Of a stretch of 64,000 nt of DNA, positions 1 to 60,094 are shown one piece after another (within the stretch, counting starts at the first letter, position 1; each line of letters begins with the position of its first letter). Position numbers and translations under genes: made by a program. The stretch comes from Deltaproteobacteria bacterium (GTDB lineage Bacteria > Myxococcota_A > Polyangia > Nannocystales > Nannocystaceae): positions 2,243,630-2,307,629 of the forward strand of contig JADJEE010000012.1 in NCBI GenBank assembly GCA_016709225.1, given 5' to 3'. Below the pieces are notes generated by a model. It ran no database searches, was not told the DNA's origin, and saw only the letters and a list, made by a program, of their open reading frames with translations.

Positions 1-621
1 GTGGCGGATGCGAGCGCCTGCATCGGTAAGCTCATCGGTGGCGACGAGTCGGGCGCGCGCGAGATCCAGGGCGCGGGTACCCTCGAGAATCCCGTCTATC
101 GCCACCTCACGGTGACCACCGGAGGCATCGCTGAATCGGCCGTGCGAGACCTCCCGCTCGATCCTCTGGGCATGCGAGTCGAGAATCGTACCCACGCCGA
201 GACGGTCACGGAGGAGGACGTCCACCCCGAGTTCGGTCTCGTCGGATACACGACGCTCTCGTCGACCGCCCAAGCCTGGGCGGACGTGTCGGTCGCAGCG
301 ACCTTGAGCGTCGACGGGCCCGGCGTGGGTGCAAACACGGTGTGCCTCACCGCCCGCCCGGCGGGTCTGCCCGAGTCGAGCTTCGTGCAGGATCACCTCC
401 TCGGTGCCCACGACGACGAGAACGCGGCACGATTCGGCCACTGGTGGGGCTCGCAGCTGAGCCTCAACTGCGACGACAAGTGGAGCTTGTTCCCGCTCGC
501 GCAGCGGCTGCCGCTGCCGTGCGCGGCCGAGCTGGCAGAGCAATCGGTGGGTTGGGAGTGCAAGTTCGACGAGTTGTGCGGCGCGACCGTGGGGACCTGC
601 ATCACACCCGAATCGGTGTGA
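1..621 (+). CDS. C-terminal fragment of a hypothetical protein (5' end lies outside the window); Cys-containing tail
   Basis: Open frame from base 1, stop at 619-621. Composition is protein-like with W/F/Y/C. No recognisable family. Confidence 0.35.
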   Translation: MADASACIGKLIGGDESGAREIQGAGTLENPVYRHLTVTTGGIAESAVRDLPLDPLGMRVENRTHAETVTEEDVHPEFGLVGYTTLSSTAQAWADVSVAATLSVDGPGVGANTVCLTARPAGLPESSFVQDHLLGAHDDENAARFGHWWGSQLSLNCDDKWSLFPLAQRLPLPCAAELAEQSVGWECKFDELCGATVGTCITPESV

Positions 622-718
622 CCCGCCCTCGGCGCTTGACATGCGTCGGCAGCGTGGCATCTTTAGACCAGCGGTCGAACCGATGGTTGCACCGCTGGTT
701 GAACAGGGACACGCAAGC

Positions 719-1894
719 ATGGACATCCTCATCGTCGGCACCGGCATTGCCGGGCCCACGCTGGCCTACTGGCTGCGGCGCGCGGGCCATCGGCCGACGC
801 TGGTCGAGCGCGCGCCGCAGCTGCGTACAGGCGGCTACCTGATCGACTTCTGGGGCGCCGGGTTCGAGGTCGCCGAGCGCATGGGCATCGTGCCGGAGCT
901 GATCCGGCGGGGCTATCGCGCGCGCGAGGTCCGGCAAGTGGATCGCGACGGCGCGCGCATCACCTCGATGAACCCCGAGGTGTTCGTGGGCTCGCAGTCG
1001 CGCTACGTGAGCCTGGCCCGCAGTGATCTCGCCGCTGTGGTGTACGACACGCTCGCGGGTGAGGTCGAGACGATCTTCGACGACACCGTGCGTGTGCTCG
1101 ATGACGACGGTCGTCGCGTGCACGTGGAGTTCGAGCGCACGACCGCAAGGGAGTTCGATCTGGTGGTGGGCGCCGATGGTCTACATTCCGCCGTGCGGCG
1201 GCTGGTGTTCGGCCCCCACGGCGACTTCGAGCGCTACCTCGGCTTCAAGATCGCCGCCTTCGACCTGGTCGGCTTCCGGCCGCGCGAGGAGTCGGTCGCG
1301 ACCCTCTACACCGAGGTCGGCCACCAGATCACGTCGTTCCCCATGCGCGACGACGCCACGATGATCGCGATCACCTTCATCGATGAGCGCCCCGAAGTGC
1401 CGGCGACGCGTGCGGAGCAGGAGGCGCTGCTGCGCTCGCGCCTCGCGGGTGCGGGCTGGCACGCGCCCGAGATCCTCGCGCAGATGTCGGCGGCGGAGGG
1501 CCTCTACATGGATCGCGTGAGCCAGATTCGCATGCCCGGGTGGTCGCGCGGTCGTGTGGTGCTGCTCGGTGATGCCGCCGCGTGTCCATCGCTGCTGTCG
1601 GGCCAGGGTTCGGCGCTCGCGATGGTCGAGGCCTACGTGCTGGCCTCGCAGCTGGCGCACGCGCCCGATCACGAGGCGGCCTTCGCCGGCTACGAGCAAC
1701 TGCTCGCGCCGCTGCTGCACTCGAAGCAACAGGCAGCCCAGCGGCTTGCGCTCGCGTTCGCCCCGAAGAACCGATTCCAGTTGTTCGTGCGCAACGGCGT
1801 GATGAAGCTGATGGGAGTACCGTGGGTCGCGAGGCTCGCCGCCGGCAAGAGCTTCAACGACGCCATCCGGCTGCCGCCGCCGCCCGACACGTGA
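719..1894 (+). CDS. FAD-dependent monooxygenase (aromatic-ring hydroxylase / UbiH-like)
   Basis: N-terminal dinucleotide-binding motif MDILIVGTGIAGPTLAYWL. DG..S motif (LVVGADGLHSAVRR). GD motif (VLLGDAAACPSLLSGQGSALAMVEA). ATG at 719 with upstream AGGGA; the track ORF (641) starts at an alternative codon. Confidence 0.85.
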   Translation: MDILIVGTGIAGPTLAYWLRRAGHRPTLVERAPQLRTGGYLIDFWGAGFEVAERMGIVPELIRRGYRAREVRQVDRDGARITSMNPEVFVGSQSRYVSLARSDLAAVVYDTLAGEVETIFDDTVRVLDDDGRRVHVEFERTTAREFDLVVGADGLHSAVRRLVFGPHGDFERYLGFKIAAFDLVGFRPREESVATLYTEVGHQITSFPMRDDATMIAITFIDERPEVPATRAEQEALLRSRLAGAGWHAPEILAQMSAAEGLYMDRVSQIRMPGWSRGRVVLLGDAAACPSLLSGQGSALAMVEAYVLASQLAHAPDHEAAFAGYEQLLAPLLHSKQQAAQRLALAFAPKNRFQLFVRNGVMKLMGVPWVARLAAGKSFNDAIRLPPPPDT

Positions 1895-1903
1895 CCACCG
1901 AAC

Positions 1904-2091
1904 ATGCCCCGACCGCGCTTCCACAAGCTTCCCCCCGAGCAGCAGCAAGAGATCGTGCGATCGTGTTCGGCGTGGGCCAGGCCATCGACACCTGGCTGCT
2001 CACGCAGGAGCTCGACGCCAAGTCGCTGCGAAAGTACGGCCCGATCTTGATCGGCATGTTCCGACGAACCCTGTCACCCGAGGAGCCCTGA
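1904..2091 (+). pseudogene. TetR-family regulator remnant: degenerate copy of 3465-4091 with a 436-bp internal deletion
   Basis: First 19 codons (MPRPRFHKLPPEQQQEIVR) match 3465-3521. Then the sequence jumps, across a gatcgtg microhomology, to the last ~43 codons (IVFG.GQA.DTWLLTQELDAKSLRKYGPILIGMFRRTLSPEEP) in another frame. The deletion is not a multiple of 3. Confidence 0.7.
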
Positions 2092-2092
2092 G

Positions 2093-2284
2093 ATGGACAT
2101 GTACGGCCACAAGCACTCGAACCTGCCGCAGAAGACGGTGATCGTCGCGATCGAGCTGGTGCTCCTCGGGATCGCAGGCCTCGTGCTGTTCGGCCCGCTG
2201 GGCGCCAGCATCCGCGCGGCACCAAGTGACACGACCGCCGAGTACCAGCCGGAGGCGATTGGAATTCTGCGTGGCTTCGGATGA
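2093..2284 (+). pseudogene. 5' fragment of an ICMT/DUF1295-like membrane protein (truncated duplicate of 4093-4770)
   Basis: First ~39 codons match 4093-4209 (MDMYGHKHS.LPQKTVIVAIELVLLGIAGLVLFGPLGAS) and keep RBS spacing. The sequence diverges after codon 39 and stops at 63 aa. The identity decay (boundary) with the intact copy is near 2212. Confidence 0.55.
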
Positions 2285-2352
2285 TTCCGGTCCCAGCCGC
2301 GGAGGTTCGCTTACGGCGGGGGCTTTTCTTTCGTAGGGTCGAGTCTTCGAGA

Positions 2353-2889
2353 TTACGGGCACTCGACCGTGTCGGTGACTTCGCAGTCGATCCCCCACGC
2401 GCTGAAGTCGGCGCAGTCGCTCGTGCCGAAGGGCTGTCCTTGGCAGGGCTCGAAGATCTCTCCGCGCAGGGTGCAGCGTAGGATTTCTCCGTAGCTCGTC
2501 ACGTCCGTGGTGCTCCAGGCCTGCACGTATAGGAAGCCGAAGCTGATGAGTAGGTCGGTACCGGAGCAGCCGATGTCGCAGTAGGACTCGGTCAGCTCGG
2601 AGACGTTGCCTTCGAGGGAGGACAGGAGTGCCTCGTGAATCGCACACTCGAGGTTCGGATCGACCGCCTCCTGGTTCGAGCCCGGATCGCGGGAGACCGG
2701 CTCGCAGGGCACAGGCGCGTCGCATCGCTCGAGCATCGACGCCGGCAGTGGGTCCCCCGTCGTCGTGTCCTCGCCCGTGTCCGAGGTTGCACCACCCGAA
2801 GCGCCCCCTTCGTCCTCGATCTGCTCCGGCCCACATCCGAGCGCCAACGTCCCGACAACAAGAGCCCCAACCAAGCCACGAATACCCAC
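2353..2889 (-). CDS. Cys-rich secreted lipoprotein, hypothetical
   Basis: Signal peptide with lipobox (LALGCG), 12 Cys, Thr/Asp-rich linker. Local GC (~62%) is below the window average. Confidence 0.6.
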   Translation of the reverse strand: MGIRGLVGALVVGTLALGCGPEQIEDEGGASGGATSDTGEDTTTGDPLPASMLERCDAPVPCEPVSRDPGSNQEAVDPNLECAIHEALLSSLEGNVSELTESYCDIGCSGTDLLISFGFLYVQAWSTTDVTSYGEILRCTLRGEIFEPCQGQPFGTSDCADFSAWGIDCEVTDTVECP

Positions 2890-2921
2890 GGCTGGGAGGC
2901 TAGCACAGCTCGGCCGGCGGA

Positions 2922-3050
2922 CTACTTCTCGAGTGACGCCGTCGCCAGCAGCGTGATCTCGATGCGCCGGTTCTTCTTCTTGCCGCGCGAATTCTTGTTG
3001 CCGTGGGCCAATCGAGTCACCTTGTGCCCAGCCTGGCTCAGCATATCCCT
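2922..3050 (-). pseudogene. OmpA-family C-terminal domain remnant (gene fragment)
   Basis: Last ~40 codons read ...LSQAGHKVTRLAHGNKNSRGKKKNRRIEITLL, matching the OmpA/MotB peptidoglycan-binding domain C-terminus (N.T..GR..NRRVEI). The rest of the domain is absent upstream. Confidence 0.4.
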
Positions 3051-3327
3051 GAGCGGCCGGCTCGGGCCAGACGACTTCGAGCCGTCTTCATGGAAGCAGT
3101 TTCGGGCAGCAAGTTTGACGGGCCCGTCCACAGGCCTGCCGGGCCAGCCGCGGTGGACATCGGGCCGAGGGCGCGCTGCACTGCGCGGCAAAGACTCGGT
3201 GATCGCGGCGCGCTCGTGCTGGCGCACGAGCAGCAACGCCGGGCCGCGGCTTGGGCCGCGGCTTGGCCCACCGCTGTGTCACGACGCCCTACGTTCCGCG
3301 TACGACCGCGCGCAGCGATGCGGTGGC

Positions 3328-3455
3328 AGAACCGATTCCAGTTGTTCATGCGCAACGGCGTGATGAAGCTGATGGGAGTACCGTGGGTCGCGAGGCTCGC
3401 CGCCGGCAAGAGCTTCATCGACGCCATCCGGCTGCCGCCGCCGCCCGACACGTGA
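3328..3455 (+). pseudogene. Duplicated 3' fragment of the FAD monooxygenase gene (copy of 1767-1894)
   Basis: Near-identical nucleotides encode NRFQLF(M/V)RNGVMKLMGVPWVARLAAGKSF(I/N)DAIRLPPPPDT. There is no monooxygenase body upstream of it. Confidence 0.6.
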
Positions 3456-3464
3456 CCACCGAAC

Positions 3465-4091
3465 ATGCCCCGACCGCGCTTCCACAAGCTTCCCCCCGAG
3501 CAGCAGCAAGAGATCGTGCGCGCAGCCCTCACAGAATTCTCCGAGCACGGCTTCAACGCCGCGTCGTTGAACCGCATCATCGACGCGGCCGGCATCTCCA
3601 AGGGGTCGATGTACTACTACTTCGACGGCAAGGAGGACCTCTACGGCCACGTGGTCCGCGTCGAGCTCGGGCGGCTCTTCGAGGCCTCCGGTCCGTTCCC
3701 GGTGCCCTCCGCCCGCGATGCCGCCAGCTTCTGGGCCACGCTCACGGAGTACTACGGCCGCATCATGGGCGCGCTCATGGCCTCGCCGGCCCTCGCCGCG
3801 CTCGCCCGTGGCTGGCTCGCGGCGTCGGCCAGCCCCGCGCTGCAGCAGGTCCAACGCGAGATGGAGTCGGCCGTGCTGCCGTGGTTCGAGCGGGTGCTGA
3901 CCGCCGGCCAGCGCGCCCGTGCCGTCCGCAAGGACATCCCGACCAGCCTCGCGATCGCGATCGTGTTCGGCATGGGCCAGGCCATGGACACCTGGCTGCT
4001 CACGCAGGAGCTCGACGCCAAGTCGCTGCGAAAGTACGGCCCGATCTTGATCGGCATGTTCCGACGAACCCTGTCACCCGAGGAGCCCTGA
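3465..4091 (+). CDS. TetR/AcrR-family transcriptional regulator
   Basis: N-terminal HTH (ALTEFSEHGFNAASLNRIIDAAGISKGSMYYYF). 208 aa. The stop overlaps the RBS (GGAG at 4082-4085) of the next gene. Confidence 0.9.
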   Translation: MPRPRFHKLPPEQQQEIVRAALTEFSEHGFNAASLNRIIDAAGISKGSMYYYFDGKEDLYGHVVRVELGRLFEASGPFPVPSARDAASFWATLTEYYGRIMGALMASPALAALARGWLAASASPALQQVQREMESAVLPWFERVLTAGQRARAVRKDIPTSLAIAIVFGMGQAMDTWLLTQELDAKSLRKYGPILIGMFRRTLSPEEP

Positions 4092-4092
4092 G

Positions 4093-4770
4093 ATGGACAT
4101 GTACGGCCACAAGCACTCGAGCCTGCCGCAGAAGACGGTGATCGTCGCGATCGAGCTGGTGCTCCTCGGGATCGCAGGCCTCGTGCTGTTCGGCCCGCTG
4201 GGCGCCAGCTTCCGCGCGTTCGGTGATTCGCCCCACCTCGGTCGCAACCTGACGCTGCTGGTCTTCGACATCGTGGTGTTCGCGCGCTACCTCGCGACGA
4301 TGTTCGTGTTCGTCGAGCGGCGGATCCCCTGGGACGAGGCATTCTCGATCCCGCTCGCGTTCGCGCTCTACCTGGTCGGCTTCCCCTTGCTCGCGAAGCC
4401 GGCGTCGACGGGCTTCGGTGCGCTCGAGCTGCTCGGGATCGGCCTGTTCGTCGGCGGATCGTTCATCAACACCTACGCCGAGTACCAGCGACGCCGCTTC
4501 AAGCGACGGCCACAGAACGCCGGCCAGCTCTACACGGGTGGATTGTTCGCCATCACGATGCACCCGAACTATTTCGGCGACCTGCTGTGGGTCGCCGGCT
4601 TCGCCTGCGTCACCCACAACGCCTTTGCCTGGCTCATCCCCGCGTTCCTGCTGGGATTCTTCTACTTCTACAACATCCCCAAGCTCGACGCCTACCTGCG
4701 CAGTCACTACGGCGCGGCGTTCACCGCCTACGCGCAGCGAACGAAGCGGCTGGTGCCGTTCGTGCTCTGA
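4093..4770 (+). CDS. Membrane protein of the DUF1295 / ICMT / steroid-5-alpha-reductase-like methyltransferase fold
   Basis: Multi-TM, 225 aa. The C-terminal motif (HPNYFGDLLWVAGFA) is typical of this family. 2 nt after the TetR stop, so translationally coupled. Confidence 0.75.
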   Translation: MDMYGHKHSSLPQKTVIVAIELVLLGIAGLVLFGPLGASFRAFGDSPHLGRNLTLLVFDIVVFARYLATMFVFVERRIPWDEAFSIPLAFALYLVGFPLLAKPASTGFGALELLGIGLFVGGSFINTYAEYQRRRFKRRPQNAGQLYTGGLFAITMHPNYFGDLLWVAGFACVTHNAFAWLIPAFLLGFFYFYNIPKLDAYLRSHYGAAFTAYAQRTKRLVPFVL

Positions 4771-4926
4771 CGGTGCTCTGCTTGGGTGATCCGTCACCTG
4801 TCGCCGCGGGCACCGTGTCACCGACCTCGACGAGGTTCTACGGGTGTGGCGAGTGACGGCGGTGCGAGGCACCTCGCCATCGACTCGTCGCTTGCCTCCG
4901 TCCTGATCTCCCGGCATCGTCGAGCG

Positions 4927-5511
4927 GTGGTTCGCACCTTCGCGTTGCTCGGCATCCTCATCGCCGCATGCGACCGCTCCGAGCCGTCGCCGGCCGGCCA
5001 CGACCCCGCGTCGACGCCGACGGCCGACGAGCCGTGCGCGCGGGACGAGGACTGTGTGTTCGCGAGCGGCTGCTGCACCGGCTGCTCGTTCTTCAGTGGC
5101 CGCACCGCGAGCGCGCGCATGAGATCCGCGAGCGAACAGGCCAGCGAAGATCGCAAGTGCTGGCTGCGCGGATGGTTCGAGGACTGCCCGCATGTCGACT
5201 GCGCCTCGCCGCCGCCGTGTCGCCTCGATCTCGGCCCGGCGTGCGTGGAGGGCCGTTGCCGACCCCGCGCGACCGGGGTCGTGGGCGACGCCAACGATCG
5301 CTGTCGGGCCGACGCCTGCGGCGAGCCACCGGCGTTCACCGGCTCCGACTGCGATGACTTCGCCCAGGCGGCGTACGAGCGCTGCGCGTGCCTCGACGGC
5401 GGCGGCCCCTGCCCGCCGGAGATCTGGCGCGGCCTGTGTGCGGACGCCAGCCGCTGCGTGGGAGACTCGCCAGGCGTCGCGGTGACGCGCGCGACCGCCG
5501 ACTGCCCGTGA
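4927..5511 (+). CDS. Cys-rich secreted lipoprotein, hypothetical
   Basis: GTG start before the signal (VVRTFALLGILIAAC), many paired Cys. The start is uncertain; the track ORF begins at 4786. Confidence 0.45.
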   Translation: MVRTFALLGILIAACDRSEPSPAGHDPASTPTADEPCARDEDCVFASGCCTGCSFFSGRTASARMRSASEQASEDRKCWLRGWFEDCPHVDCASPPPCRLDLGPACVEGRCRPRATGVVGDANDRCRADACGEPPAFTGSDCDDFAQAAYERCACLDGGGPCPPEIWRGLCADASRCVGDSPGVAVTRATADCP

Positions 5512-5586: not shown

Positions 5587-6939
5587 TCACTCCTCGAACG
5601 GGTTCGCGAACGCGGGGTCGAGGAGGAACTCGTCGTCGGTCATCGACTCGAGGAATGCGATGACGGCGTCGATCTCTTCGTCGGTCGCGGGGAATCCGCG
5701 CACCAGCCCCGACTTGAGCGGGCTGACCCGACCATCGCCGGCGTACGGGCCCGTCTCGGTCACGGTGCCACCCGCGGCGTAGTGGTCGAGCACGTCGCGG
5801 AGCGTCGCCTTGCTGCCGTCGTGCATGTACGGCCCGGTCACCGCGATGTTGCGCAGCGACGGGGGCCGGAACAACCCGCGATGGTCTGGATCGAAGGTCA
5901 CCTCGAAGAGGCCCTGATCGTACGGCGGATAGCTGCCGTCGCCACCGACGTTGTAGAGCCCGTTGTTGAAGAACGGATACTGGATCGACCCCGGGTCGGA
6001 GTCCGCGTCGCGGTACGACGTGGTGAGGTTGATGCCATTGTGGCAGTGGAAGCACTCGAAGCGCTCGCCGAAGAACAGCGTCATGCCCTGGCGCTGCTGC
6101 TCGGTCAGCGCGTCGTGGTCACCGGCCACGAAGCGATCGTAGGGGCTGCGACCCGGGATCATCGTGCGACAGAAGCTCGCGAGCGCGAACACGATCTTGT
6201 TGACGGTCGCGCCCGACTCGCTCTCGGGGAACGCGGCCGCGAACATCGCTGCGTACATCGGATCGTCGTCGAAGCGCGCGAGCACCTCGGCCTCGTTGCC
6301 ATCGTTGATCCCCAGCTCGACCGGATTGTCGTTGCGTAGCGGCACCTGCAGCTGGTCCTCGAGCTCGAGCAGCACGTTGCTCGCCCACGTGAACGTCGTG
6401 CGATACGCGACCATGCCGAGCGCCTGGCTGTTGCGCTCGAGCACAGTACCGGTCGAGCCGCTCGGCGTCGTCTCGGGGTCTGCAAATCCCAGCTCTTGGA
6501 AGTGGCAGTCGGCGCACGACTGCTCGAGGTTTCCCGACAGGCGACGGTCGTAGAACAGATGCCGCCCGAGCTCGATCTTCTCGGCCGTGAGCGGATTGAA
6601 CTCGGGAATGTAGGGGGTCTCGAGGTGATCCGGCAGCCGCAGCAGCTCGCGAACGGGATCGACCGGGACGCCGCCGCTCGACGAATCGGCGGCGCCCGTG
6701 TCGGTCGGCACACCCGTGTCGTCGCTGCTGCCGCTCGTGCTCGTGCTCGTGCTCGTTCCGGTGCCCGTGCTGCCGCCGCTGCTGCTGCTCGCACTGGCGT
6801 GCTCACCCGCGCCGCTGGGCGACGAGCATCCGATCGACGCGCACAGCGCGAGCGCAAGCGACGTTGCCGCCCGCGCCCGCGGCCGCTCTGCCTCACTGGG
6901 CAGCGAACACCGCATCTTGATCCGCCGCCGAAACGCCAT
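5587..6939 (-). CDS. Di-heme cytochrome c peroxidase of the MauG/MbnH type (MXAN_0977-family di-heme enzyme)
   Basis: Two CxxCH motifs (CADCH, CFHCH). Signal peptide with lipobox (LALALCASIGCSS) after a Thr/Ser-rich linker. Start at ATG 6939; an alternative ATG is at 6915. Confidence 0.85.
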   Translation of the reverse strand: MAFRRRIKMRCSLPSEAERPRARAATSLALALCASIGCSSPSGAGEHASASSSSGGSTGTGTSTSTSTSGSSDDTGVPTDTGAADSSSGGVPVDPVRELLRLPDHLETPYIPEFNPLTAEKIELGRHLFYDRRLSGNLEQSCADCHFQELGFADPETTPSGSTGTVLERNSQALGMVAYRTTFTWASNVLLELEDQLQVPLRNDNPVELGINDGNEAEVLARFDDDPMYAAMFAAAFPESESGATVNKIVFALASFCRTMIPGRSPYDRFVAGDHDALTEQQRQGMTLFFGERFECFHCHNGINLTTSYRDADSDPGSIQYPFFNNGLYNVGGDGSYPPYDQGLFEVTFDPDHRGLFRPPSLRNIAVTGPYMHDGSKATLRDVLDHYAAGGTVTETGPYAGDGRVSPLKSGLVRGFPATDEEIDAVIAFLESMTDDEFLLDPAFANPFEE

Positions 6940-8014
6940 CGTCGATGTCGACGCCGAACGAGGCAAAGATGGTCCCACAGTGCGGCTGCATCGGCGACGA
7001 GTGACACTCGACGCCGGGCCCCTCGCCGATGATTTCGAACGTCTTGGGGTCATAGATCGGCGCGAGGAAGTCCACCCCCTCGAGCGCGCGCCCGAGGTCG
7101 ACCGCGACCACACCGGTCGCGAGATCGAACCCGTCGAGGTCGACCTTCGGTGTGTTCAAGAATCCGCACGCGTCTTGGTTCTCGAGCGCGAGCTCGCCAT
7201 CCCCCGCGCAATCGGTGCTCCCGATGTGCAGGTAGCCGCCGCCCGCGACCGCCTCGGGGTCCTCCACGGAGAAGTTGAACACGAAGTGGCGGTAGCCGGT
7301 CGCCCACGACCAGTACATCTCGCCCAGCGGCGACGGAGCCGCCTCCGCGCTCGTGGTGTTGATGAGATCCTTCATCACGGCCTGCGGCACACCGACGTCG
7401 AAGCTGATCCGCGTCACGTCCGCGACCTGCGTCATGCCGGTGATCACGTCGTTCTCGCGCGCGGTGCCTTCGGCGAAGGCAATCGCGGAGGCTTCGCAAT
7501 CGCCTTCGGTGTTGCTGGTGAGATCGATGAGCGAGACCTGTCCGGCATCACTCGTGTACTGGAAGTCGTTGACGTCGAGCTCGACGGTCACCTCGCTGCC
7601 GTCGGCGGCGTACATGTGCAGGTTGCTGATGTAGAACCGCAGATCCGCTGGGCTCGCGGTGTGCTCGCCGTCGGGGCCGAGCCCGGTGATCGTGCTGCCG
7701 CAACCGACCTCTTCGCCGTTGGCGACCGCCGCGAACCGCAGGCTGAACGGCGCGAGCGCCTCGCCGGTCGTGCTTCCGCCGGAGCTGTCGAGCCCGGTCG
7801 GGTCGGTATCGCTCGTCGCCGTGGTGGCGCTGGTGGTGGTGGCGGTCGGGTCTGTCGTGGTCGTCGATGCGGTGGTCGCCGAGGTGCTCGACATCGTCGG
7901 ATCGCCGGTCGAGCCGTCGGCGTTCGTCGAAGTCTCCGCGTCGTCGCCACCGCAAGCGCCGAGGACCGCAGCAAACAAAAGGGTGGGCGCGAGTGTCCGG
8001 CAGTCCATCGTCAT
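6893..8014 (-). CDS. Four-Cys partner lipoprotein of the metallo-mystery pair (MbnP-like)
   Basis: Lipobox (LLFAAVLGACGG), long Thr-rich linker, conserved Cys/His/Met/Trp-rich domain. Immediately upstream of the di-heme peroxidase and overlapping it by 47 nt (23 nt with the 6915 start). This is the partner-then-peroxidase order seen in mbnPH-type pairs. Confidence 0.7.
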   Translation of the reverse strand: MTMDCRTLAPTLLFAAVLGACGGDDAETSTNADGSTGDPTMSSTSATTASTTTTDPTATTTSATTATSDTDPTGLDSSGGSTTGEALAPFSLRFAAVANGEEVGCGSTITGLGPDGEHTASPADLRFYISNLHMYAADGSEVTVELDVNDFQYTSDAGQVSLIDLTSNTEGDCEASAIAFAEGTARENDVITGMTQVADVTRISFDVGVPQAVMKDLINTTSAEAAPSPLGEMYWSWATGYRHFVFNFSVEDPEAVAGGGYLHIGSTDCAGDGELALENQDACGFLNTPKVDLDGFDLATGVVAVDLGRALEGVDFLAPIYDPKTFEIIGEGPGVECHSSPMQPHCGTIFASFGVDIDDGVSAADQDAVFAAQ

Positions 8015-8296
8015 GTGTCGCGACGCTAGCCAGGCCGACCGCGCGCCGCCAGCGAGAATGGGGGGGCGCGAAAATTCGCCACATGCCTGGTGCCGCGTAG
8101 GCTCGAGTCGCGCATTGGGCATCGCAGGTGTTCCGCGAGGTGTTCAAGACTTGGCCAGCGCCGCCGGAGGGTCGCGGTGGCTGCGATGCCGTCGCGAACA
8201 GCGATGCCTCCCGCGTGACAGATCCGCAACGGGCATTCTCCGCCGCGTGCGCTAACCTCGGCGGAGGTCCGCCTCCGACGGGCAGCGGGTAGGATC

Positions 8297-18798: not shown

Positions 18799-19863
18799 TC
18801 ACTTGTCGAACAGACCGTCGAGGTCCTCGCGCCGCGCACCCTTGGCGTCGCAGACCGCGAACTGGCCCCCGGGATAGAGCGCCGCGCCGCCGTAGCGACC
18901 GCCGCGATCGACCGCGTAGAAGTTGACGTTGAAGTCGGGCCGCCCATCCGCGCGCAGCAATCGCTTGGCGCGGGTGGTCTCGACGATGCGCTTGCATGCG
19001 GCCATGCACGCGTCCTTGGGGTGCTTGCCCGCGCGGATGAACTCGACCACCGTGTGACTGCCGGCGCTGACGATGTTGGCCTCGCCACGCCCGGTGCTGC
19101 CGGCCGCGCCGACGAGGTTGTCGACGAACAGACCCGCGCCGATGAGCGGCGAGTCGCCGACGCGACCGGGGATCTTGAATGCGAGCCCGCTGGTGGTGGT
19201 GACACCGCCGAGGTCGCCGTTGCGATCGACGCCGCAGCAGTTGATGGTGCCGGTGATGCCGAAGTGCGCCTTGACATCGGCGGGCACGTCCTTGCCGGTC
19301 TTGGGCAGCCAGTCGTCGCGATCGGACAGCGTCGACTTCCAGTACAGCCAGATCTCGCGCGCCTCGGGCGTGAGCAACTCCTGCTCGACGAAGCCGTGGG
19401 CGTTGGCGAACGCGCGCGCGCCCTCGCCCGACAGCAGCACGTGATCGGTGTAGCGCAGCACCGCCAGTGCGACCTGGCTGGGGTTCTTGATCCGTCGCAG
19501 CGAGCACACCGCGCCCGCCAGACCGCTCGGTCCATCCATGACCGAGGCGTCGAGCTCGACCTCGCCGTCTTCGTTGGGCAGGCCGCCGAGGCCGACGCTG
19601 TGATCGTTGGGATCGTCCTCCACCAGTGTCACGCCCTTCACCACCGCGTCGACCACCGGTGCACCGTCGAGGATCGCCTTCATCGCGGTCTCGACGCAGG
19701 CGGGATGACCGTTGGCGGAGGCGACCACGACCGGGTGCTTGGGCTTGCGCAGCACCGCCGGCGCGGCCGCACTGGCGCCGCGGCTGGGCGGCGCCATCAG
19801 GCAGCCGGAGCCGAGCACCATCGACGATCGGAGCAGGAAACCGCGGCGTCGCAATCGGGGCAT
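18799..19863 (-). CDS. Ntn-hydrolase isoaspartyl peptidase / L-asparaginase (aspartylglucosaminidase-like), Tat-exported
   Basis: Twin-arginine signal ([14 protein letters not shown]). Autoproteolytic G-T nucleophile region ([14 protein letters not shown]). Stop is 10 nt before the cydA start. Confidence 0.8.
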
Positions 19864-19894
19864 GGACACCCGCGAGCGTGCCAGAAAATCCGGG

Positions 19895-22810
<2,916 letters not shown>

Positions 22811-23084
22811 CGGGCGCAATGGACGGGCTCGAACGGCCCCCCGGGAGGGCGACGCAGCGCCCCGCCGGTACCCGATCGAATGGCCAGTCTATCAGTCGCC
22901 CCCACCGACGTCGGCGGCCCGGCCGCTCGTGGGGGCCCTGGCCGTCGACCTGCTCCGCACGCTCGCCACCCCCATCACGACCACGAAATCGCCAACCATC
23001 GACACCCCTGCGGGGTCCGGCCTACCCTCGCGCGCCGAGGCCGCGGCGACGCACGTCCCTTCCCACGGCAGAAGAGGTTCGACC

Positions 23085-24287
23085 ATGCTTGCGAAGTTTC
23101 TGACGCGCTCTGTTTTCTCGTGCATCGGGCTCACGCTCGTTGCGTCCGGTTGTGAAAAGCAGCAGACCACCCCGCCGCCCAGCGATCCGGTCGCGACCGC
23201 GCCGGCCAAGCCACCGGCGAAGCCGATCCCCGATGGCTTCTTCACGCTGACGCCGCAGCTGACCGTCAACGATGTCGACGCCGCGATCGCGTTCTACACC
23301 ACCGCGCTCGGCGCCCAGAAGCTGTTCACACTGCCCGGCGCCGACGGCAAGACGATGCACGGCGAGATCAAGATCGGCGACTCGATCGTGATGATCGACG
23401 CCGAGAACCCGCAGGGCAAGTCGCCGCTGACGCTCGGCGGCACGCCGGCGACGCTGATGGTCTATGTCGAGAAGGTCGACGAGACCTACGCGGCCGCGCT
23501 CGCAGCCGGCGCGAAGCAGGAGCAGCCGGTGCAGGATCAGTTCTGGGGCGATCGCTACGGCGAGCTCAGCGATCCGTTCGGACACCGCTGGGCGCTCGCG
23601 ACCCACGTCGAGGACCTGACGCCCGAGCAGATGCAGCAGCGCAGCGCCCTGGTGATGGCCGAGATGGCGCCGCCGGCCAAGGGCAAGAAGAAGAAGAAGG
23701 CCAAGAAGGGCGCGCCGCCGGTGTGGAAGGCGGTCGCAGGCACGCCCGCGACGCAAGCCGTGCCCGCGCCGTACCACACCGTGACCGTGGCCTACACCCT
23801 CGACAACGCTGCGGCCGCGATCGAGTTCTACAAGACCGCCCTGGGTGCACAGGAGCGCGATCGCATGGCGATGCCCGACGGTCGCATCATGCACGCCGAG
23901 ATCTCCATCGGTGACTCGTTCCTCATGCTCTCCGACGAGATGCCGGGCATGTCGAAGTCGGCCAAGACCCTCGCGGGCTCGCCGGTGGCGCTGATGCTCT
24001 ACACGCCCGACGTCGACGCCGCGATGACGACCGCGACCGGTGCCGGTGGCACCGCGGTGATGCCGGTCAGCGACATGTTCTGGGGCGATCGCTACGGCGC
24101 GATCGTGGATGTCGCGGGCTACCTGTGGGGCATCGCCACGCACAAGGAAGACCTGACGCCCGAGGAGATCGCCGAGCGGGCCAAGGCAGCGATGCCGCCG
24201 GCCGCAGCCGAGACCGCGCCCGCGCCCGCGCCCGCGGCTGCGCCCGCCGGGGCCGAGACCGCCGCCGCGCCGACGCCCGCGAGCTGA
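23085..24287 (+). CDS. Lipoprotein with two tandem VOC/glyoxalase-fold (PhnB-like) domains
   Basis: ATG 23085 with GAAGAGG RBS. Lipobox (LTLVASGC). Two repeats of the ~130-aa domain (...AIAFY.TALGAQ...GDRYG...) separated by a KGKKKKKAKKG linker. Confidence 0.8.
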   Translation: MLAKFLTRSVFSCIGLTLVASGCEKQQTTPPPSDPVATAPAKPPAKPIPDGFFTLTPQLTVNDVDAAIAFYTTALGAQKLFTLPGADGKTMHGEIKIGDSIVMIDAENPQGKSPLTLGGTPATLMVYVEKVDETYAAALAAGAKQEQPVQDQFWGDRYGELSDPFGHRWALATHVEDLTPEQMQQRSALVMAEMAPPAKGKKKKKAKKGAPPVWKAVAGTPATQAVPAPYHTVTVAYTLDNAAAAIEFYKTALGAQERDRMAMPDGRIMHAEISIGDSFLMLSDEMPGMSKSAKTLAGSPVALMLYTPDVDAAMTTATGAGGTAVMPVSDMFWGDRYGAIVDVAGYLWGIATHKEDLTPEEIAERAKAAMPPAAAETAPAPAPAAAPAGAETAAAPTPAS

Positions 24288-34335: not shown

Positions 34336-34557
34336 GGCTCGCGCTAGTAGTGCGGGATCGCGGCCGGCCGTTCGCGACGATCGCCCGCGAAGGGGCATTT
34401 GGAGTGGAAACCCGTCACGCCGCAGGCGAAGGCGCGACCGCCCGTGCGGCGCCACGCCGTCTGGTTCGCGCGCGCCTGCGCGGGCAATCTCACGGTCTTT
34501 GCGGCGGGGCCGATCACGTCGGTACGCGACCGCTCAGGGCGACGCGACGATCGGTCG

Positions 34558-37500
34558 TCACGGCCGCACGAGCGTCGCGAGCCACGCGTCGATCTCGGCG
34601 CGCTCGGGCGCGGCCGGATCGTAGAGCGCTTGCGCGGCACGGGCGAGCTCGTCCACGTCGGATCGCGAGCCGCCGCTGGCCCAGGTCGCCTCGGCGAGTC
34701 GGCGGCGTGCGGTCGCGCGCTGATCGGCCGACGCACCGCCGCGATCGAGACGCTCCTGCGCCTCACGAGCCGTGGCAAGGGCCGCGTCGGCGTCGCCCAG
34801 CTGCAGCTGCGCGGTGCACAGATCGAGCAGGACCGCGCCGAGGTCGGGATGATCGGGCTGCGTCTTTGCCAGCAAAGTCCGAGCGCGCTCGAAATGGGCG
34901 AGCGCCGCGGCCGGGCGCCCGAACGCGAGCTCGTCGTTGCCCAGGCCCACGAGGATGGGCGGCAGCAAGGTGTGCGCGGGGCCCAGCTTCTCCTCGATGA
35001 TCGCGAGCGCCCGCCGGTGATGTGCGAGCGCGTCGTCGAGGCGACCCAACGCTCGTTCGGCGTCGCCGAGGTTGCCGAGGGCGTTGGCCAGCTCGGGATG
35101 GTCCGGCCCGAGCGCGCGCTCGAAGATCGCCACGGCGCGCTCGAGCTGCCGCGCGGCGTCGGCCGGCCGCTTCGCACTGCGCGTGACGACGCCCAGATTG
35201 GTGAGGCTCTGCGCAACGCGGGGATGATCGGGCCCGAAGGCGGCCTCGTTGACCGCGAGCACGCGCGCCATCAATGCGGCAGCCTGCTCGAGATCGCCGC
35301 GACGCCAGTACACCTCGGCCTCGTTCGACAGCGCGTTGGCGACGTCAGGGTGATCCTCGCCGAAGGTGGCGACGAAGATCGCTCGCGCCTGCTCGTAGCT
35401 CGCGAGCGCATCGTCGAGGCGGCCGAGATCGACGAGCGTGGTGCCGAGGTTGTTGAGCGACAACGCCACGTCGGGGTGCTCGGGACCAAGCCGCTCGCGG
35501 AGGATCGCGAGTGCACGCGTGTGATGGGCGAGCGCATCGTCGAGGCGGCCGAGATCGCGGGCCATCACGCCGAGCTCGTTGTGCATCCGCGCACCGCGGA
35601 GGTCACCCTCCTCGCCGAGTCGCTCGACCAGCGACTCGGCCCAGCGCGCCCACAGCTGGCCTTCGGCGGGCCGCACCAGTCGCAGCGCGACGACCACCGC
35701 GAGGCGGCGCGCCGCATCGGCCGCCTCGGCATCCTCGCCCAGCTCGACGGCGGCGAGCACCGCCTGGGTCAGCTCGCGCTCGGCATCCTCGTGACGGCCG
35801 ACCCTCTCGAGCAGTGCCCCGACACGCGCGCGGCTGCGGACGATGAGCGCCGGATCACCGTGCGCCTCGGCGTCGGCGAGCAAGCCCTCGGCCATCGCGA
35901 GCGCGGGTTCGGCACGGCCTGCCGCCTGCAGCGCATCGACGCGGACGAGCTGCCGTTCGATCGCGAGATCGCTCGCATCGCGCTCGGCCGGGGCATGACG
36001 AACCACCCAACCGACGTCCTGGCAGCGCTCGACCGGGGGCAGCTCGGCCGCGAGCAGCAGTGCCTTGCCGACGAACTTCCGGTCGGCCTCACGCGCGACC
36101 TCGAGAAGCGCCGCGAGCGACTCGGCCTCGAGGTCCAGACAGTCGCGCATTCCGGCGACGATCGCAGGGGGCTGCGTGCCGTCCAGCCCCGCACGGCACG
36201 CATCGACGCGCGCGGCGGACCAGCGTGCGGCATAGTCGTCGATGGCGGGCGAGAACTTCGCGATCGTCGGGGTCGCAAACGGCACCTCGGTGGTGCGCAT
36301 CGCGGTCTCGACCTCGGCACGGATGCGATCGTCCCAGTGCTCGTCGATGGCATCGCCCTCGCGATCGCAACCTGCGAGCGCGCGCACGTGGGCGATCCGC
36401 CACGCCGCCGCGCCGCCGCCGGCGAGCGCGAGCAACCCACCCACCGCCAACCAACGTCGACGGCGCTGTCGCGGATCGCGGGCGAGGGCAGCGAGCAGCG
36501 CATCGAGATCTTCGAAGCGGTCGGCCGGCGCCAGGGCAAGCCCGCGATCGAGCACCCGGCGTACGAACGTGGGAACGCCAGTCGCGAGCTTCGGTTCGAC
36601 ACGTCGGCCCGAGAGCACCGCGGCCGCCAGTTCGGGCAGCGAACGCGCGGCGAACGGACGACTGCCGTACACGCCCTCCCACAGCGCCACGCAGAAGCTG
36701 AACTGATCCGAGCGGGGATCGATCGGCATGCTCTGGAACTGCTCGGGGGACATATACGCTGGCGTACCCACCGTCGTGCCGGTGCGCGTCAGATCGGTGG
36801 CGAGCGCGTCGGTGCGCGGCCGCGGCCCGTCGCTCGTGATCTCGTCGACGTGCTGCACCCGCACGAGCCCGAAGTCCATGACGAGCACGCGACCGTCGTC
36901 GCCGACCATCACGTTGTCGGGCTTGAAGTCGCGATGCACGAGCCCCTTGCGATGCGCGGCCGCGAGTCCGCGTCCGGCCTGCATCATGACGGCGATCACC
37001 TCGCTCCACGTGCGCGGACTCGCCTGCAGCCACTGCCGGAGCGTCACGCCCTGCACCAGCTCCATCGCGAGAAACACCTGGCCCTCGTGCGTGCCGACGT
37101 CATGCACGGCGATGACATTGGGGTGGCTCACCCGCGCCATCGCCTGGGCCTCGCGCAGCAGTCGATCGTCGACGCCGGGGCTGGCGGCCGCCTGGTCCTC
37201 GTCGCCGAAGAGCCGATGCATGAGCCGCCCCAGCACGCGGGCCTCGCCGAGCTCCGCATGCAGTCGATGCAGCAGTTTGAGCGCGACCCGGCGGTCGAGC
37301 TCGGGATCGTACGCCGCATAGACGGTCCCCATGCCGCCCGCACCGAGCCGATCGAGCACCACGTAGCGACCGATCGTCTGGCCGCGCGCGAAGCCCTCGC
37401 CGCGTGGGCGGGCACCGGTGCCGTCGGCCGGCCCCGAGCCTTTGGTCGTCTCGGTCTCGCCGCTCACATGCTTCCGCCCGCTTCGCGCTGCCCGCTGGCT

Positions 37501-37638
37501 GTCGTCGGGCGCTCGGCAACCTGTGCGGGACGCCGGTCGCTCGAGCGTACCAGGGTTGTACGCGGCCGCGGCACCAACCCCACCGCGCCGCCGCTCCCCA
37601 CGGCGCATCGCACGGATCGGCTCGCGCCATCGAGCCAC
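34558..37638 (-). CDS. Ser/Thr protein kinase with a long C-terminal TPR array (paralogue of 19895-22810)
   Basis: GAGGMGTVY, VALK, HRDFKPDN, DFG, SPE. About 45-aa insert after the catalytic Lys. About 600 aa of TPR. The start is uncertain (non-ATG in the track; next in-frame ATG at 37608). Confidence 0.85.
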   Translation of the reverse strand: MARWREPIRAMRRGERRRGGVGAAAAYNPGTLERPASRTGCRAPDDSQRAARSGRKHVSGETETTKGSGPADGTGARPRGEGFARGQTIGRYVVLDRLGAGGMGTVYAAYDPELDRRVALKLLHRLHAELGEARVLGRLMHRLFGDEDQAAASPGVDDRLLREAQAMARVSHPNVIAVHDVGTHEGQVFLAMELVQGVTLRQWLQASPRTWSEVIAVMMQAGRGLAAAHRKGLVHRDFKPDNVMVGDDGRVLVMDFGLVRVQHVDEITSDGPRPRTDALATDLTRTGTTVGTPAYMSPEQFQSMPIDPRSDQFSFCVALWEGVYGSRPFAARSLPELAAAVLSGRRVEPKLATGVPTFVRRVLDRGLALAPADRFEDLDALLAALARDPRQRRRRWLAVGGLLALAGGGAAAWRIAHVRALAGCDREGDAIDEHWDDRIRAEVETAMRTTEVPFATPTIAKFSPAIDDYAARWSAARVDACRAGLDGTQPPAIVAGMRDCLDLEAESLAALLEVAREADRKFVGKALLLAAELPPVERCQDVGWVVRHAPAERDASDLAIERQLVRVDALQAAGRAEPALAMAEGLLADAEAHGDPALIVRSRARVGALLERVGRHEDAERELTQAVLAAVELGEDAEAADAARRLAVVVALRLVRPAEGQLWARWAESLVERLGEEGDLRGARMHNELGVMARDLGRLDDALAHHTRALAILRERLGPEHPDVALSLNNLGTTLVDLGRLDDALASYEQARAIFVATFGEDHPDVANALSNEAEVYWRRGDLEQAAALMARVLAVNEAAFGPDHPRVAQSLTNLGVVTRSAKRPADAARQLERAVAIFERALGPDHPELANALGNLGDAERALGRLDDALAHHRRALAIIEEKLGPAHTLLPPILVGLGNDELAFGRPAAALAHFERARTLLAKTQPDHPDLGAVLLDLCTAQLQLGDADAALATAREAQERLDRGGASADQRATARRRLAEATWASGGSRSDVDELARAAQALYDPAAPERAEIDAWLATLVRP

Positions 37639-37706
37639 GCATGGACGCGACGCGGAGCGACGCGGCCGGCTTCGGGTAACATCGCCGCCCCGAGGGAGAG
37701 CCGACG

Positions 37707-38168
37707 ATGCGCAAGGTGACGCCGTTTCTGATGTTCGACGACCAGCTCGAAGCCGCGATGGCGTTCTACACCGCCACGTTCCCGGACTCCGAGATCAAGA
37801 ACGTCGCGCGCACCGGCGCAGATGGGCCGGTCAGTTCCGCGGAGTTCGTCGTCGGTGGTCAGGCGTTCATGGGCTACAACGGCGGGCCGTACTTTTCGTT
37901 CTCGGAGGGTTTCTCGCTGTACGTCGACTGCGAGGACCAGGCCGAGGTCGATGCGTACTGGAACAAGCTCGTCGAGGCCGGCGCCACGCCGACCCAGTGT
38001 GGTTGGATCAAGGACCCGTTCGGCGTCACCTGGCAGATCGTGCCGCGGCGCTTCACCGAGCTCATCCGCGACGCAGACCGGAAGAAGGTCAAGGCCGTAA
38101 TGGACGCGATGTTGACCATGGTGAAGCTCGACGTCGCGGCGCTCGAGCGCGCCTACGACGAGGCGTAG
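37707..38168 (+). CDS. PhnB-like VOC-family protein (3-demethylubiquinone-9 3-methyltransferase-like domain)
   Basis: 153 aa. MRKVTPFLMFDDQ...A..FY...F consensus of the PhnB/glyoxalase fold. Confidence 0.8.
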   Translation: MRKVTPFLMFDDQLEAAMAFYTATFPDSEIKNVARTGADGPVSSAEFVVGGQAFMGYNGGPYFSFSEGFSLYVDCEDQAEVDAYWNKLVEAGATPTQCGWIKDPFGVTWQIVPRRFTELIRDADRKKVKAVMDAMLTMVKLDVAALERAYDEA

Positions 38169-58567: not shown

Positions 58568-60094
58568 ATGCCTAGCCCTGGGACTCGTGTGCCTGCAGCC
58601 GTGTCGATCGTGGTGCCGAACCGTCGCCTCTTGCCCCGCGCCACACTCGCTGCCATGGCGATGGCGCTCGGTGCCTGCGCCGATCCGTGCCTCGACGATG
58701 GTCTGGGACAGTCGGCGTGTCCGGTGCAGCAGACCGATGGCGCCAGCGGCAGCAGCACCGGCGAGACCGACTCGAACAGCAACACGATCTCCGACTCCGA
58801 CTCCGCCAGCGCGACGCTGACCGCGGGCTCGGCCTCGATGAGCGCTTCGGCCAGCGACACCGACACCGACTCGGCGACCGCATCGGCATCGGCCAGCGCG
58901 ACCGACTCGGCCAGCGCAACCGACTCGGCGTCGGACTCGGGCAGCGCGAGTGACAGCGAAGGTGGCACGCAGTGGTGCCCCGACGCCGACATGGACGGCT
59001 TCGGCGACCCCGAGGGCTGCGTGAACGCGATGGACCCCCCGCCCGGCACCGTCGACAACGACGACGACTGCGACGACGGCGACGCGGACACCTTCCCCGG
59101 CGCGGCCCCCAACGACGACGCGACCGCGTGCATGCACGATGGTGACGGCGACGACTGGGGCGACGACAACCCCGGGCCCGGCGTCGACGCGGGCACCGAC
59201 TGCGACGACGAGGACGCCGAGACCTTCCCGGGTGCGGCCGAGGCCGAGGCCGATCCGACCCAGTGCAGCACCGACGCCGACGGCGACGGCTGGGGCGACG
59301 CGAACCCCAGCGGCACCGCGGTGCCGGGCGCCGACTGCTTCGACGGCAACGATGCGCTCAACCCCTCGACGATGGCGCTCACGGCATTCGTCAACCAGGG
59401 CTTCCAGCCGGTGGTCGCGACCGCGAGCACGCTCGACGCCGCACTCTCGACGGTGGCCCCGCTCGACACGCCATTCCAGTGGAATCCGGTGTCGGCGACG
59501 ATCGACGAGACCGGCCTCATCATCCTCAACAACGACTCGCAGAACCGGCTCTACTCCGTCGAGTACCTCGGGGTCTGCGACGGCAGCGAGGCCGAGGGCA
59601 CGACGACTGCGCTGCCGCAGTCCCACGGCATCGACGTCTTCTGCGGCCTCGGCTTCGGCGTCGACGGTCTGCTCTACGGCGTGCAGAACGCGACCGACGA
59701 GGTCGCCGAGTTCGATCCCACCACCGGTGCGGTGCTCAGCTCGGTGCCGCTGACGCTGGGCGGCACGCCGTTCGACGCCGGCTCGTGTGGCATGACCTTC
59801 GACTGCCACACCCAGCGCCTGCTCTACGCCCACGGCCCCAGCGGTGACATCTTCGCGCTCGACCCCGTCGCCGGCACGCTCGAGCTGGTCGCCGACACCG
59901 CCTTCACGTGGTCACCGACCGGCCTCGCCTACGATCCCGTCGATCGCGTGGTGTGGGTCGCCGGTGACACGACGATGTATCGCGTCGCGATCGACGGCAG
60001 CAACACCGTCGAAGAGATCGGCAACTTCGACTTCGGACCCGGCGGCGACGTGTCGGTCTCGAACATCGAGACGCTGCCGGTCTGCGTACCGTAG
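58568..60094 (+). CDS. Secreted lipoprotein with three MopE-like putative metal-binding repeats plus a C-terminal beta-propeller-like domain
   Basis: Lipobox (ALGAC). Repeats of D.DGDG(W/F)GD......G.DC(D/F)D.(D/N)A..(F/N)PGA. Ser/Asp/Ala-rich linker. Confidence 0.65.
   Translation: MPSPGTRVPAAVSIVVPNRRLLPRATLAAMAMALGACADPCLDDGLGQSACPVQQTDGASGSSTGETDSNSNTISDSDSASATLTAGSASMSASASDTDTDSATASASASATDSASATDSASDSGSASDSEGGTQWCPDADMDGFGDPEGCVNAMDPPPGTVDNDDDCDDGDADTFPGAAPNDDATACMHDGDGDDWGDDNPGPGVDAGTDCDDEDAETFPGAAEAEADPTQCSTDADGDGWGDANPSGTAVPGADCFDGNDALNPSTMALTAFVNQGFQPVVATASTLDAALSTVAPLDTPFQWNPVSATIDETGLIILNNDSQNRLYSVEYLGVCDGSEAEGTTTALPQSHGIDVFCGLGFGVDGLLYGVQNATDEVAEFDPTTGAVLSSVPLTLGGTPFDAGSCGMTFDCHTQRLLYAHGPSGDIFALDPVAGTLELVADTAFTWSPTGLAYDPVDRVVWVAGDTTMYRVAIDGSNTVEEIGNFDFGPGGDVSVSNIETLPVCVP

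Follow-up and report, generated by a model that had tools for sequence, protein, structure and literature searches.

How did one segment of an operon for a FAD-dependent monooxygenase, a TetR-family regulator and a DUF1295 membrane protein come to stand twice in the same stretch of DNA, each time with a different part of the operon broken? The question is raised by the beginning of a 64,000-nt stretch, hereafter the window, from a wastewater bacterium of the family Nannocystaceae (Deltaproteobacteria bacterium, GCA_016709225.1, contig JADJEE010000012.1, positions 2,243,630 to 2,307,629 of the forward strand); all positions below are window coordinates. The locus is a moderately old duplication-insertion, the redundant halves of which are decaying into pseudogenes.

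Two direct copies of an operon segment flank unrelated DNA

Repeats were located by self-blastn, a repeat search and base-by-base comparison. Self-blastn of the window returned two blocks: 1767–1959 matches 3328–3520 (193 nt, 2 mismatches, 99.0% identity, E=2e-95) and 1957–2218 matches 3957–4218 (262 nt, 4 mismatches, 98.5% identity, E=2e-130). The blocks lie in the same order and in direct orientation, with 6 mismatches over 452 nt in total (98.7% identity), and neither self-blastn nor the repeat search found another repeat of comparable quality in the window. The first-pass annotation, made from the letters alone, had described 1767–2212 as collinear and nearly identical with 3328–4209. The similarity is indeed continuous rather than patchy, and both location and collinearity stand, but the right edge belongs at 2218/4218. 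All four edges are sharp, with identity at background level left of 1767 and 3328 and right of 2218 and 4218. The first copy, said earlier to lack approximately 3525–3960, lacks exactly 3521–3956; since these 436 nt equal 3x145+1, the TetR frame of that copy is shifted.

The duplicated segment, B, extends from the last 42 codons of the monooxygenase gene to codon 42 of the DUF1295 gene. Instead of standing head to tail, its copies are separated by an unrelated stretch of 1,109 nt (2219–3327), referred to as X. The structure is a dispersed or insertion-associated duplication and not a strict tandem. The earlier reading as a segmental duplication is thus right about the direct duplication of part of the operon but overlooked the insert that the copies flank. 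With B' for the first, deleted copy and A and C for the flanks, the arrangement reads A-B'-X-B-C.

The ancestral state is clear because relatives carry the operon uninterrupted, and this comparison of orthologous loci, proposed as a check at the outset, supports the duplication reading. In one relative (L009) monooxygenase, TetR and DUF1295 follow each other without interruption, with amino acid identities of 72, 68 and 72%, respectively; in a second (L010) the monooxygenase tail, TetR and DUF1295 are directly adjacent; a third (L028) likewise contains the trio. These loci point to an ancestral A-B-C that was one operon, in which a promoter/operator preceded the genes for the FAD monooxygenase, TetR and DUF1295. 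Since the operon is uninterrupted in relatives and the DUF1295 homologs align end to end (more than 100 proteins of 223–229 aa, over 100% of their length), the joints at 1767 (copy 1) and 4218 (copy 2) are native, and those at 2218/2219 and 3327/3328 are novel.

We also surveyed 80 metagenome loci (L027–L106), 70 of which were informative. The monooxygenase is directly upstream of TetR, its end at most 120 nt from the TetR start, in 66 of these 70, and none of the surveyed loci has the duplicated segment or a homolog of the lipoprotein gene carried by X. As a two-gene module, monooxygenase-TetR is widely conserved, and DUF1295 stands next to it only in the close relatives L009, L010 and L028.

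The duplication is present in the genome and shared by several strains

Could the arrangement be an assembly artefact, that is, a mis-joined or collapsed repeat or a set of co-assembled strain alleles, with no single genome carrying A-B'-X-B-C? The organism is known only from metagenome-assembled genomes (MAGs), each of the short-read contigs L001, L002 and L026 ends within the repeat, and a Logan contig, L003, takes a different path through it. However, identical junctions recur in six or more independent assemblies, for which different assemblers were used. L002 (GCA_020050275.1) spans A-B'-X-B and L001 (GCA_017996215.1) spans B'-X-B-C, both breaking inside a 134-nt stretch that is identical between the copies, and L023 covers window positions 1987–3378. 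A 620-nt sequence from ENA (L024, window 1701–2320) holds the entire deleted copy 1 together with both of its unique flanks, monooxygenase sequence on one side and the start of X on the other. In L026 (GCA_020051655.1) a protein specific to the copy 1 TetR remnant, downstream of the deletion junction, comes right after the monooxygenase. L005, a Logan contig from 6 samples, equals window 2180–3378 and ends exactly 30 nt past the single-nucleotide differences at 2210 and 3348, where k-mers cease to be copy-specific; these ends indicate that both copies coexist in one genome, as required of a k=31 unitig.

The gene orders in the MAGs, read from consecutive protein accessions, are the same. Monooxygenase, stub, lipoprotein, a 45-aa tail open reading frame (ORF), TetR and DUF1295 follow one another on contigs of 3.67 Mb and 0.68 Mb, and a 2.89-Mb contig (MAG IPK74) has this order too, but without an accession for the stub. 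Two further observations speak against an artefact: the junction between the right-hand part of X (X2) and the monooxygenase tail would be impossible in an unduplicated strain, and the differences between the copies are reproducible and polarised towards the non-functional sides. Independent assemblies thus reproduce every junction, which answers the concern about mis-assembly raised with the first-pass annotation. We consider an artefact extremely unlikely; the duplication is present in the genome, inherited and common to several strains, and for MAG quality control it counts as genuine, neither a binning nor an assembly error.

Each copy keeps a different part of the operon

The gene content of the two copies (Table 1) supports complementary pseudogenisation, with copy 1 keeping the monooxygenase and copy 2 keeping TetR and DUF1295. 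This is the content first reported for them: an intact monooxygenase, a broken TetR and a 63-aa stub in copy 1, and only the monooxygenase tail (about 42 codons) with intact TetR and membrane-protein genes in copy 2.

The last 42 codons of the intact monooxygenase gene lie inside copy 1. Its product passes NCBIfam NF005761/PRK07588 (525 bits, cut-off 454) and is 72% identical to the L009 ortholog over its full length, tail included. Scored as a tetracycline destructase (NF033476) it reached 226 bits against a cut-off of 550, and this identity was rejected. The copy 1 TetR has lost the helix-turn-helix and most of the ligand-binding domain (about codons 20–164), and its last 42 codons are out of frame. 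Three MAGs list the stub that follows as a hypothetical protein (MBK6922510.1, MBK8716432.1 and MBP7287848.1), and the monooxygenase tail ORF of copy 2 has the same annotation (MBK6922512.1, IPH07_34295, 45 aa). Public MAGs record ‘hypothetical proteins’ of 63, 45 and 42 aa at this locus; these are gene fragments, and their annotation can be corrected as such.

In copy 2, the intact TetR matches PF00440 at aa 17–61 (57 bits, cut-off 24), a domain that lies in the part deleted from copy 1, and over its full length it is 94% identical to the TetR of L010, 95% to that of L027 and 68% to that of L009. The first 126 nt of the DUF1295 gene are inside copy 2, and its product scores 65 bits against the Pfam cut-off of 20.4. 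This protein had initially been called ICMT-like. The membrane-protein gene is intact in copy 2, as claimed, but its family is DUF1295; an ICMT identity was rejected at 21.1 bits for PF04140 (cut-off 24) and 39.7 bits for NF040696 (cut-off 160), and the label would reflect a distant superfamily resemblance only.

Table 1. Positions of the features of the duplicated locus within the window
Feature	Position	Strand	Remarks
Promoter/putative operator region	636–718	+	TTGACA then TTTAGACCAGCGGTCGAACC; palindrome ACCAGCGGT N15 ACCGCTGGT within TTTAGACCAGCGGTCGAACC; sites at 636–714
FAD-dependent monooxygenase, intact, 391 aa	719–1894	+	Pfam FAD_binding_3, E=1.8e-19
Copy 1 (B') of the duplicated segment	1767–2218	+	452 nt, carries the 436-nt deletion
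TetR pseudogene	1904–2091	+	18 native codons, then frameshift
Deletion junction	1957–1959		GCG common to both breakpoints (3518–3520 and 3954–3956 in copy 2)
63-aa stub ORF	2093–2284	+	first 42 DUF1295 codons plus 21 read-through codons from the insert
X1, inverted fragment of an OmpA-lipoprotein locus	2219–3041	-	homology to L011/L018 loci
Lipoprotein gene, intact	2353–2889	-	signal peptide, LALGC lipobox
OmpA/MotB-family gene, last 39 codons	2925–3041	-	64% identical to L011 OmpA aa 268–306
X2, 286 nt, non-coding-like	3042–3327		perfect 8-bp hairpin 3212–3231; two tandem 12-mers 3241–3264
Copy 2 (B) of the duplicated segment	3328–4218	+	full length, 891 nt
Monooxygenase 3' tail pseudogene	3328–3455	+	about 42 codons plus stop, no upstream gene part
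TetR-family regulator, intact, 208 aa	3465–4091	+	Pfam TetR_N, E=1.7e-15
DUF1295 membrane protein, intact, 225 aa	4093–4770	+	Pfam DUF1295 (PF06966), E=9e-18

The deletion in copy 1 has a 3-nt overlap

The two repeat blocks overlap by exactly the 3 nt GCG, of which copy 1 retains a single instance without filler. The deletion had first been attributed to microhomology at GATCGTG. A short overlap does exist at the junction, but it is GCG: GATCGTG stands beside both breakpoints in copy 2 (3512 and 3959), and because both motifs persist in copy 1 (1951 and 1959), it was ruled out as the crossover repeat. Three deletion junctions are seen in this genome, the other two, with overlaps of CGG and GATG, belonging to an older cassette scar described below, and all overlaps are 3–4 nt long. 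The chance probability of an overlap of at least 3 nt is 0.07 at one junction and about 4e-4 for three junctions out of three.

Decay is confined almost entirely to the redundant parts and postdates an old duplication

L010 and L009 served as outgroups to polarise the substitutions between the copies. Five of the six derived alleles, namely 3348A, 3418T, 1972G, 1986C and 2121A, are in the non-functional copy; 4210T (Ile40Phe in DUF1295) is the only derived change in a functional gene. All six are non-synonymous in their original frames, a proportion that is not significant (about 0.15 by our own estimate).

Strain comparison gives these changes a relative age. The allele 3418T (Asn to Ile in the dead tail) is private to the assembly of the window: only MBK6922512.1 has Ile, both L001 and L002 have A at this position, and the tail ORFs have Asn in both the 0.68-Mb MAG and IPK74. 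A stub variant, P0153, has the ancestral Ser10. MAG IPK74, a second strain, has the X2|monooxygenase-tail junction in common with the window; its tail ORF shares the derived Met (3348A) and adds a private W to L change, and its functional monooxygenase has a private T to P change that is missing from the tail copy. The shared 3348A and the private changes of IPK74 indicate that the duplication is older than the split between the strains and that each copy has since evolved on its own. Gene conversion after that split was ruled out, as the strain-private changes are not shared between the copies. The first-pass annotation was right that the rearrangement is genuine, but calling it recent and unresolved was an overstatement, given that it predates the strain split.

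The spacer between the copies is composite

X consists of at least two parts, X1 and X2. In the loci L011 and L018, a full OmpA gene neighbours the lipoprotein gene, and OmpA followed by lipoprotein is the native order; in X1 the lipoprotein gene no longer has the complete OmpA gene of these relatives in front of it. The OmpA gene is truly cut at 3041, since no OmpA homology extends beyond this position in any frame, even at E=50, and the conserved AAGYADQRP motif is missing from the tail that remains. The lipoprotein itself has Cys residues that are conserved across five homolog clusters, the sole clusters known, all of them from Nannocystales-like MAGs.

X2 has no similarity by blastn or tblastx to the window, to the 6 kb upstream of it (L002) or to any of the fetched relatives. 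It has no codon periodicity, as its GC content at third codon positions is flat (0.67–0.77 in all six frames, versus 0.81–0.93 in the flanking real genes), Rfam and tRNA scans of it gave no match, and its folding is not unusual (z=-0.55). The hairpin in X2 is GCTCGTGC-TGGC-GCACGAGC, and its tandem repeat is two exact copies of GGGCCGCGGCTT.

Searches for the origin of X1 returned no native source within the species. A lipoprotein-profile scan of genome contigs found four distant relatives (53–68%), none from the species of the window; the protein collection contains no paralog of the lipoprotein, with one accession per MAG; and among the best 120 OmpA homologs there is no intact ortholog of the X1 OmpA from the large contigs of this species. 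X1 may be the only copy in the genome. No second copy of X is found in the 60 kb downstream (window) or the 6 kb upstream (L002).

An insert between direct repeats superficially resembles a transposon that has duplicated its target site. However, the ‘target duplication’ would be 891 nt long, versus the 2–14 nt made by transposases, and X, which is not repeated within the window, carries just two ORFs, the lipoprotein and the OmpA tail, and no gene for a transposase, integrase or recombinase. Its ends also have no terminal inverted repeats; the sole inverted repeat nearby, I24, is internal, 20 nt at 80%. With no recombinase, no terminal inverted repeats and a repeat of 891 nt, a transposon or integrative element was rejected, and we find X as a mobile element hardly conceivable.

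Traces of an older event upstream

The operon appears to have been rearranged before. In the species of the window, a gene of 779 aa lies immediately upstream of the monooxygenase, its last 206 codons being window 1–621, and the window contains no second copy of it. In L027, where the monooxygenase is 96% and TetR 95% identical to those of the window, positions 1–4032 have a different order: the DUF1801-side flank, promoter, monooxygenase, TetR, nt 1–56 of DUF1295, and then the upstream region and body of the 779-aa gene. L002, in which window nt 1 is position 5989, contains a scar at 4067–4192, 2.0–1.8 kb upstream of window position 1. Here 62 nt of monooxygenase (approximately window 909–970) are fused to the same DUF1295(1–56)|779-aa-upstream junction as in L027. 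The scar occupies the position of the L027 cassette and arose by the two deletions with CGG and GATG overlaps mentioned above. The scar and the L027 cassette indicate that the common ancestor carried cassette*-779aa-cassette, and this third, older and almost erased cassette copy implies that a duplication-insertion of the same type had happened earlier.

In both events the break in DUF1295 falls within its first 126 nt. The older one might have duplicated the promoter, monooxygenase, TetR and DUF1295 nt 1–56 around the 779-aa gene, in which case the 5' end of DUF1295 would be a recurrent breakpoint of two nested events, owing either to fragility (fork stalling, a GATCG-rich TetR/DUF1295 boundary) or to selection. 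In the selective variant, extra copies of a TetR-controlled xenobiotic monooxygenase could have been gained repeatedly in activated sludge, the surplus decaying later. A recurrent breakpoint seems to us quite unlikely; the wider question that it touches is whether rearrangements concentrate at this operon or selection acts on its dosage.

The intact TetR and DUF1295 genes may be cut off from their promoter

The promoter/palindrome motif (Table 1) is conserved in L009 and L027, upstream of their monooxygenase orthologs. The region holds no second site of this kind, and the sequence upstream of the intact TetR has no copy. The palindrome is probably the operator of TetR. A sigma-70 scan of 500–4900 gave zero matches even at the conserved operon promoter and is hence uninformative for this organism. 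A terminator-like hairpin is located at 2306–2320. The TetR-DUF1295 pair would be cut off from the sole recognisable promoter/operator by the broken copy, this hairpin and the convergent lipoprotein gene, and would then have to be transcribed from the insert or by read-through.

TetR-regulated flavin monooxygenase modules exist, tetracycline-destructase/TetR pairs being one example. The operon resembles them in that a group-A FAD monooxygenase directly precedes a TetR gene (in the 66 of 70 loci noted above) and that the upstream palindrome is conserved. It differs from them in its enzyme, which is PRK07588 and not a tetracycline destructase, and in its lineage-specific DUF1295 partner.

How the arrangement may have arisen

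Overall we favour, as fairly probable, a duplication that turned A-B-C into A-B'-X-B-C with captured filler and was followed by decay. This account starts from what is shown above: the topology, the composite insert, the deletion with its overlap, the polarity with which the copies decayed, and the inheritance. Sister-chromosome ends broken after DUF1295 nt 126 and before monooxygenase codon 350 would have been joined by RecA-independent illegitimate recombination, with two ectopic genomic fragments captured as filler, which would place the 891-nt B twice in direct orientation with the 1,109-nt X between. In the replicative equivalent, a fork would have switched templates serially. Deletions at short microhomologies would then have eroded the product, the 436-nt deletion destroying the TetR of copy 1.

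Filler capture has a precedent in Streptomyces ambofaciens, in which endogenous fragments of 30 bp to 18.8 kb are captured at end-joined double-strand breaks (PMC5869714). As in that GC-rich bacterium, unrelated chromosomal fragments of a size within this range are found here at a joint of repair or rearrangement, more than one of them apparently joined in series. Unlike in S. ambofaciens (PMC5869714), the event is inferred from its product alone, and the flanking ends overlap by 891 nt, which calls for two sister molecules or a template switch and not for one re-ligated break. The locus also resembles a tandem duplication with complementary degeneration, in that two collinear direct copies are present, each gene is intact in one copy and the changes accumulate in the redundant parts. 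In contrast to that pattern, 1,109 nt of composite DNA separates the copies, and the unit cuts two genes, so neither copy was ever a complete operon.

The later erosion, too, is of a familiar kind. Deletions between short identities, through illegitimate recombination, replication slippage or microhomology-mediated end joining, were classically described among spontaneous deletions in E. coli lacI. The 436-nt deletion is similarly clean, without filler and with one GCG kept, and two more deletions have overlaps of 3 and 4 nt. In contrast to lacI, the overlaps here are short for such deletions (3–4 nt), and the longer GATCGTG was left unused.

Several points weigh against the favoured account. 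Taken alone, a 3-nt overlap gives weak support to microhomology, as it occurs by chance in 7% of cases. Contig L003 (Logan, SRR14932621, 1,497 nt) represents copy 1 without the deletion (approximately window 1726–2783 including 3521–3956), running from unique monooxygenase sequence through B with the 436 nt into X. The alleles along it are copy 1, copy 1, the 436 nt, copy 2, copy 2, copy 1 and copy 1, and the contig represents either a polymorphic deletion, with a surviving undeleted haplotype, or a chimeric path through the de Bruijn graph that switches copies where they are identical. It fits a genuine undeleted copy 1 equally well because 1972G and 1986C are derived alleles. Neither X1 nor X2 could be traced to a source locus, the part of this genome covered being the 64 kb of the window and 6 kb upstream, and end joining, template switching and a series of separate events are therefore not separable. 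The regulatory consequence proposed above is a pure inference.

Two other routes lead to a similar product. Campbell-type integration of a circular DNA in which B was joined to X, by a single crossover with the chromosomal B, gives exactly the B-X-B topology; X1|X2, the internal breakpoint of X at about 3041, could be the joint at which the circle closed, and the differently truncated cassette of L027 shows that rearranged versions exist in the population as possible donors. However, the protein and contig collections searched yielded no donor in which X2 and X1 flank B, X has no plasmid, integrase or conjugation gene, and the illegitimate joints B|X1 and X2|B would merely be shifted to a donor that has not been seen. 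We hold this route to be unlikely.

We judge as similarly improbable a larger tandem duplication, spanning B and a distant X in either order, that was later trimmed by an internal deletion between B' and X. Structures of this kind most commonly arise by tandem duplication and subsequent deletion, the locus does lose DNA through small-homology deletions, and the older event at the 779-aa gene can be read in the same way. Such a duplication predicts a second X, but this is missing from the 60 kb downstream and the 6 kb upstream (L002), and the X1 lipoprotein, with one accession in each MAG, lacks a paralog in the protein collection. Moreover, further events would be needed, since X1 is inverted and joined to the unrelated X2.

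Read as a duplication with captured filler, the locus is a fresh example of a well-known kind of rearrangement, mildly unusual only in that the same type of event is seen twice at one operon. It implies no new molecular system; it offers a natural snapshot, datable by strain comparison, of an operon that was duplicated, interrupted by captured DNA and eroded by short-homology deletions.

Other features of the window

Downstream of the operon, adjacent and overlapping genes for a di-haem cytochrome c peroxidase (MauG/MbnH-like, PF03150) and an MbnP-family protein (PF20243) occupy 5587–8122 on the minus strand. Pairs of MauG/MbnH-like and MbnP genes are known from copper-related loci. Between DUF1295 and this pair lies a Cys-rich ORF of 241 aa (4786–5511) with no family match. 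Farther downstream, 22030–22737 and 36651–37429 are diverged paralogous segments with 77–83% nucleotide identity, located in two ORFs of approximately 1,100 aa (19712–23155 and 34399–37719) that have no Pfam match. Finally, an internal tandem-like repeat with units of about 135 nt that are 76% identical is found at 59065–59345, in a region with large overlapping ORFs on the two strands; among them is a minus-strand ORF of 1,022 aa with a Glucodextran_B-like domain.

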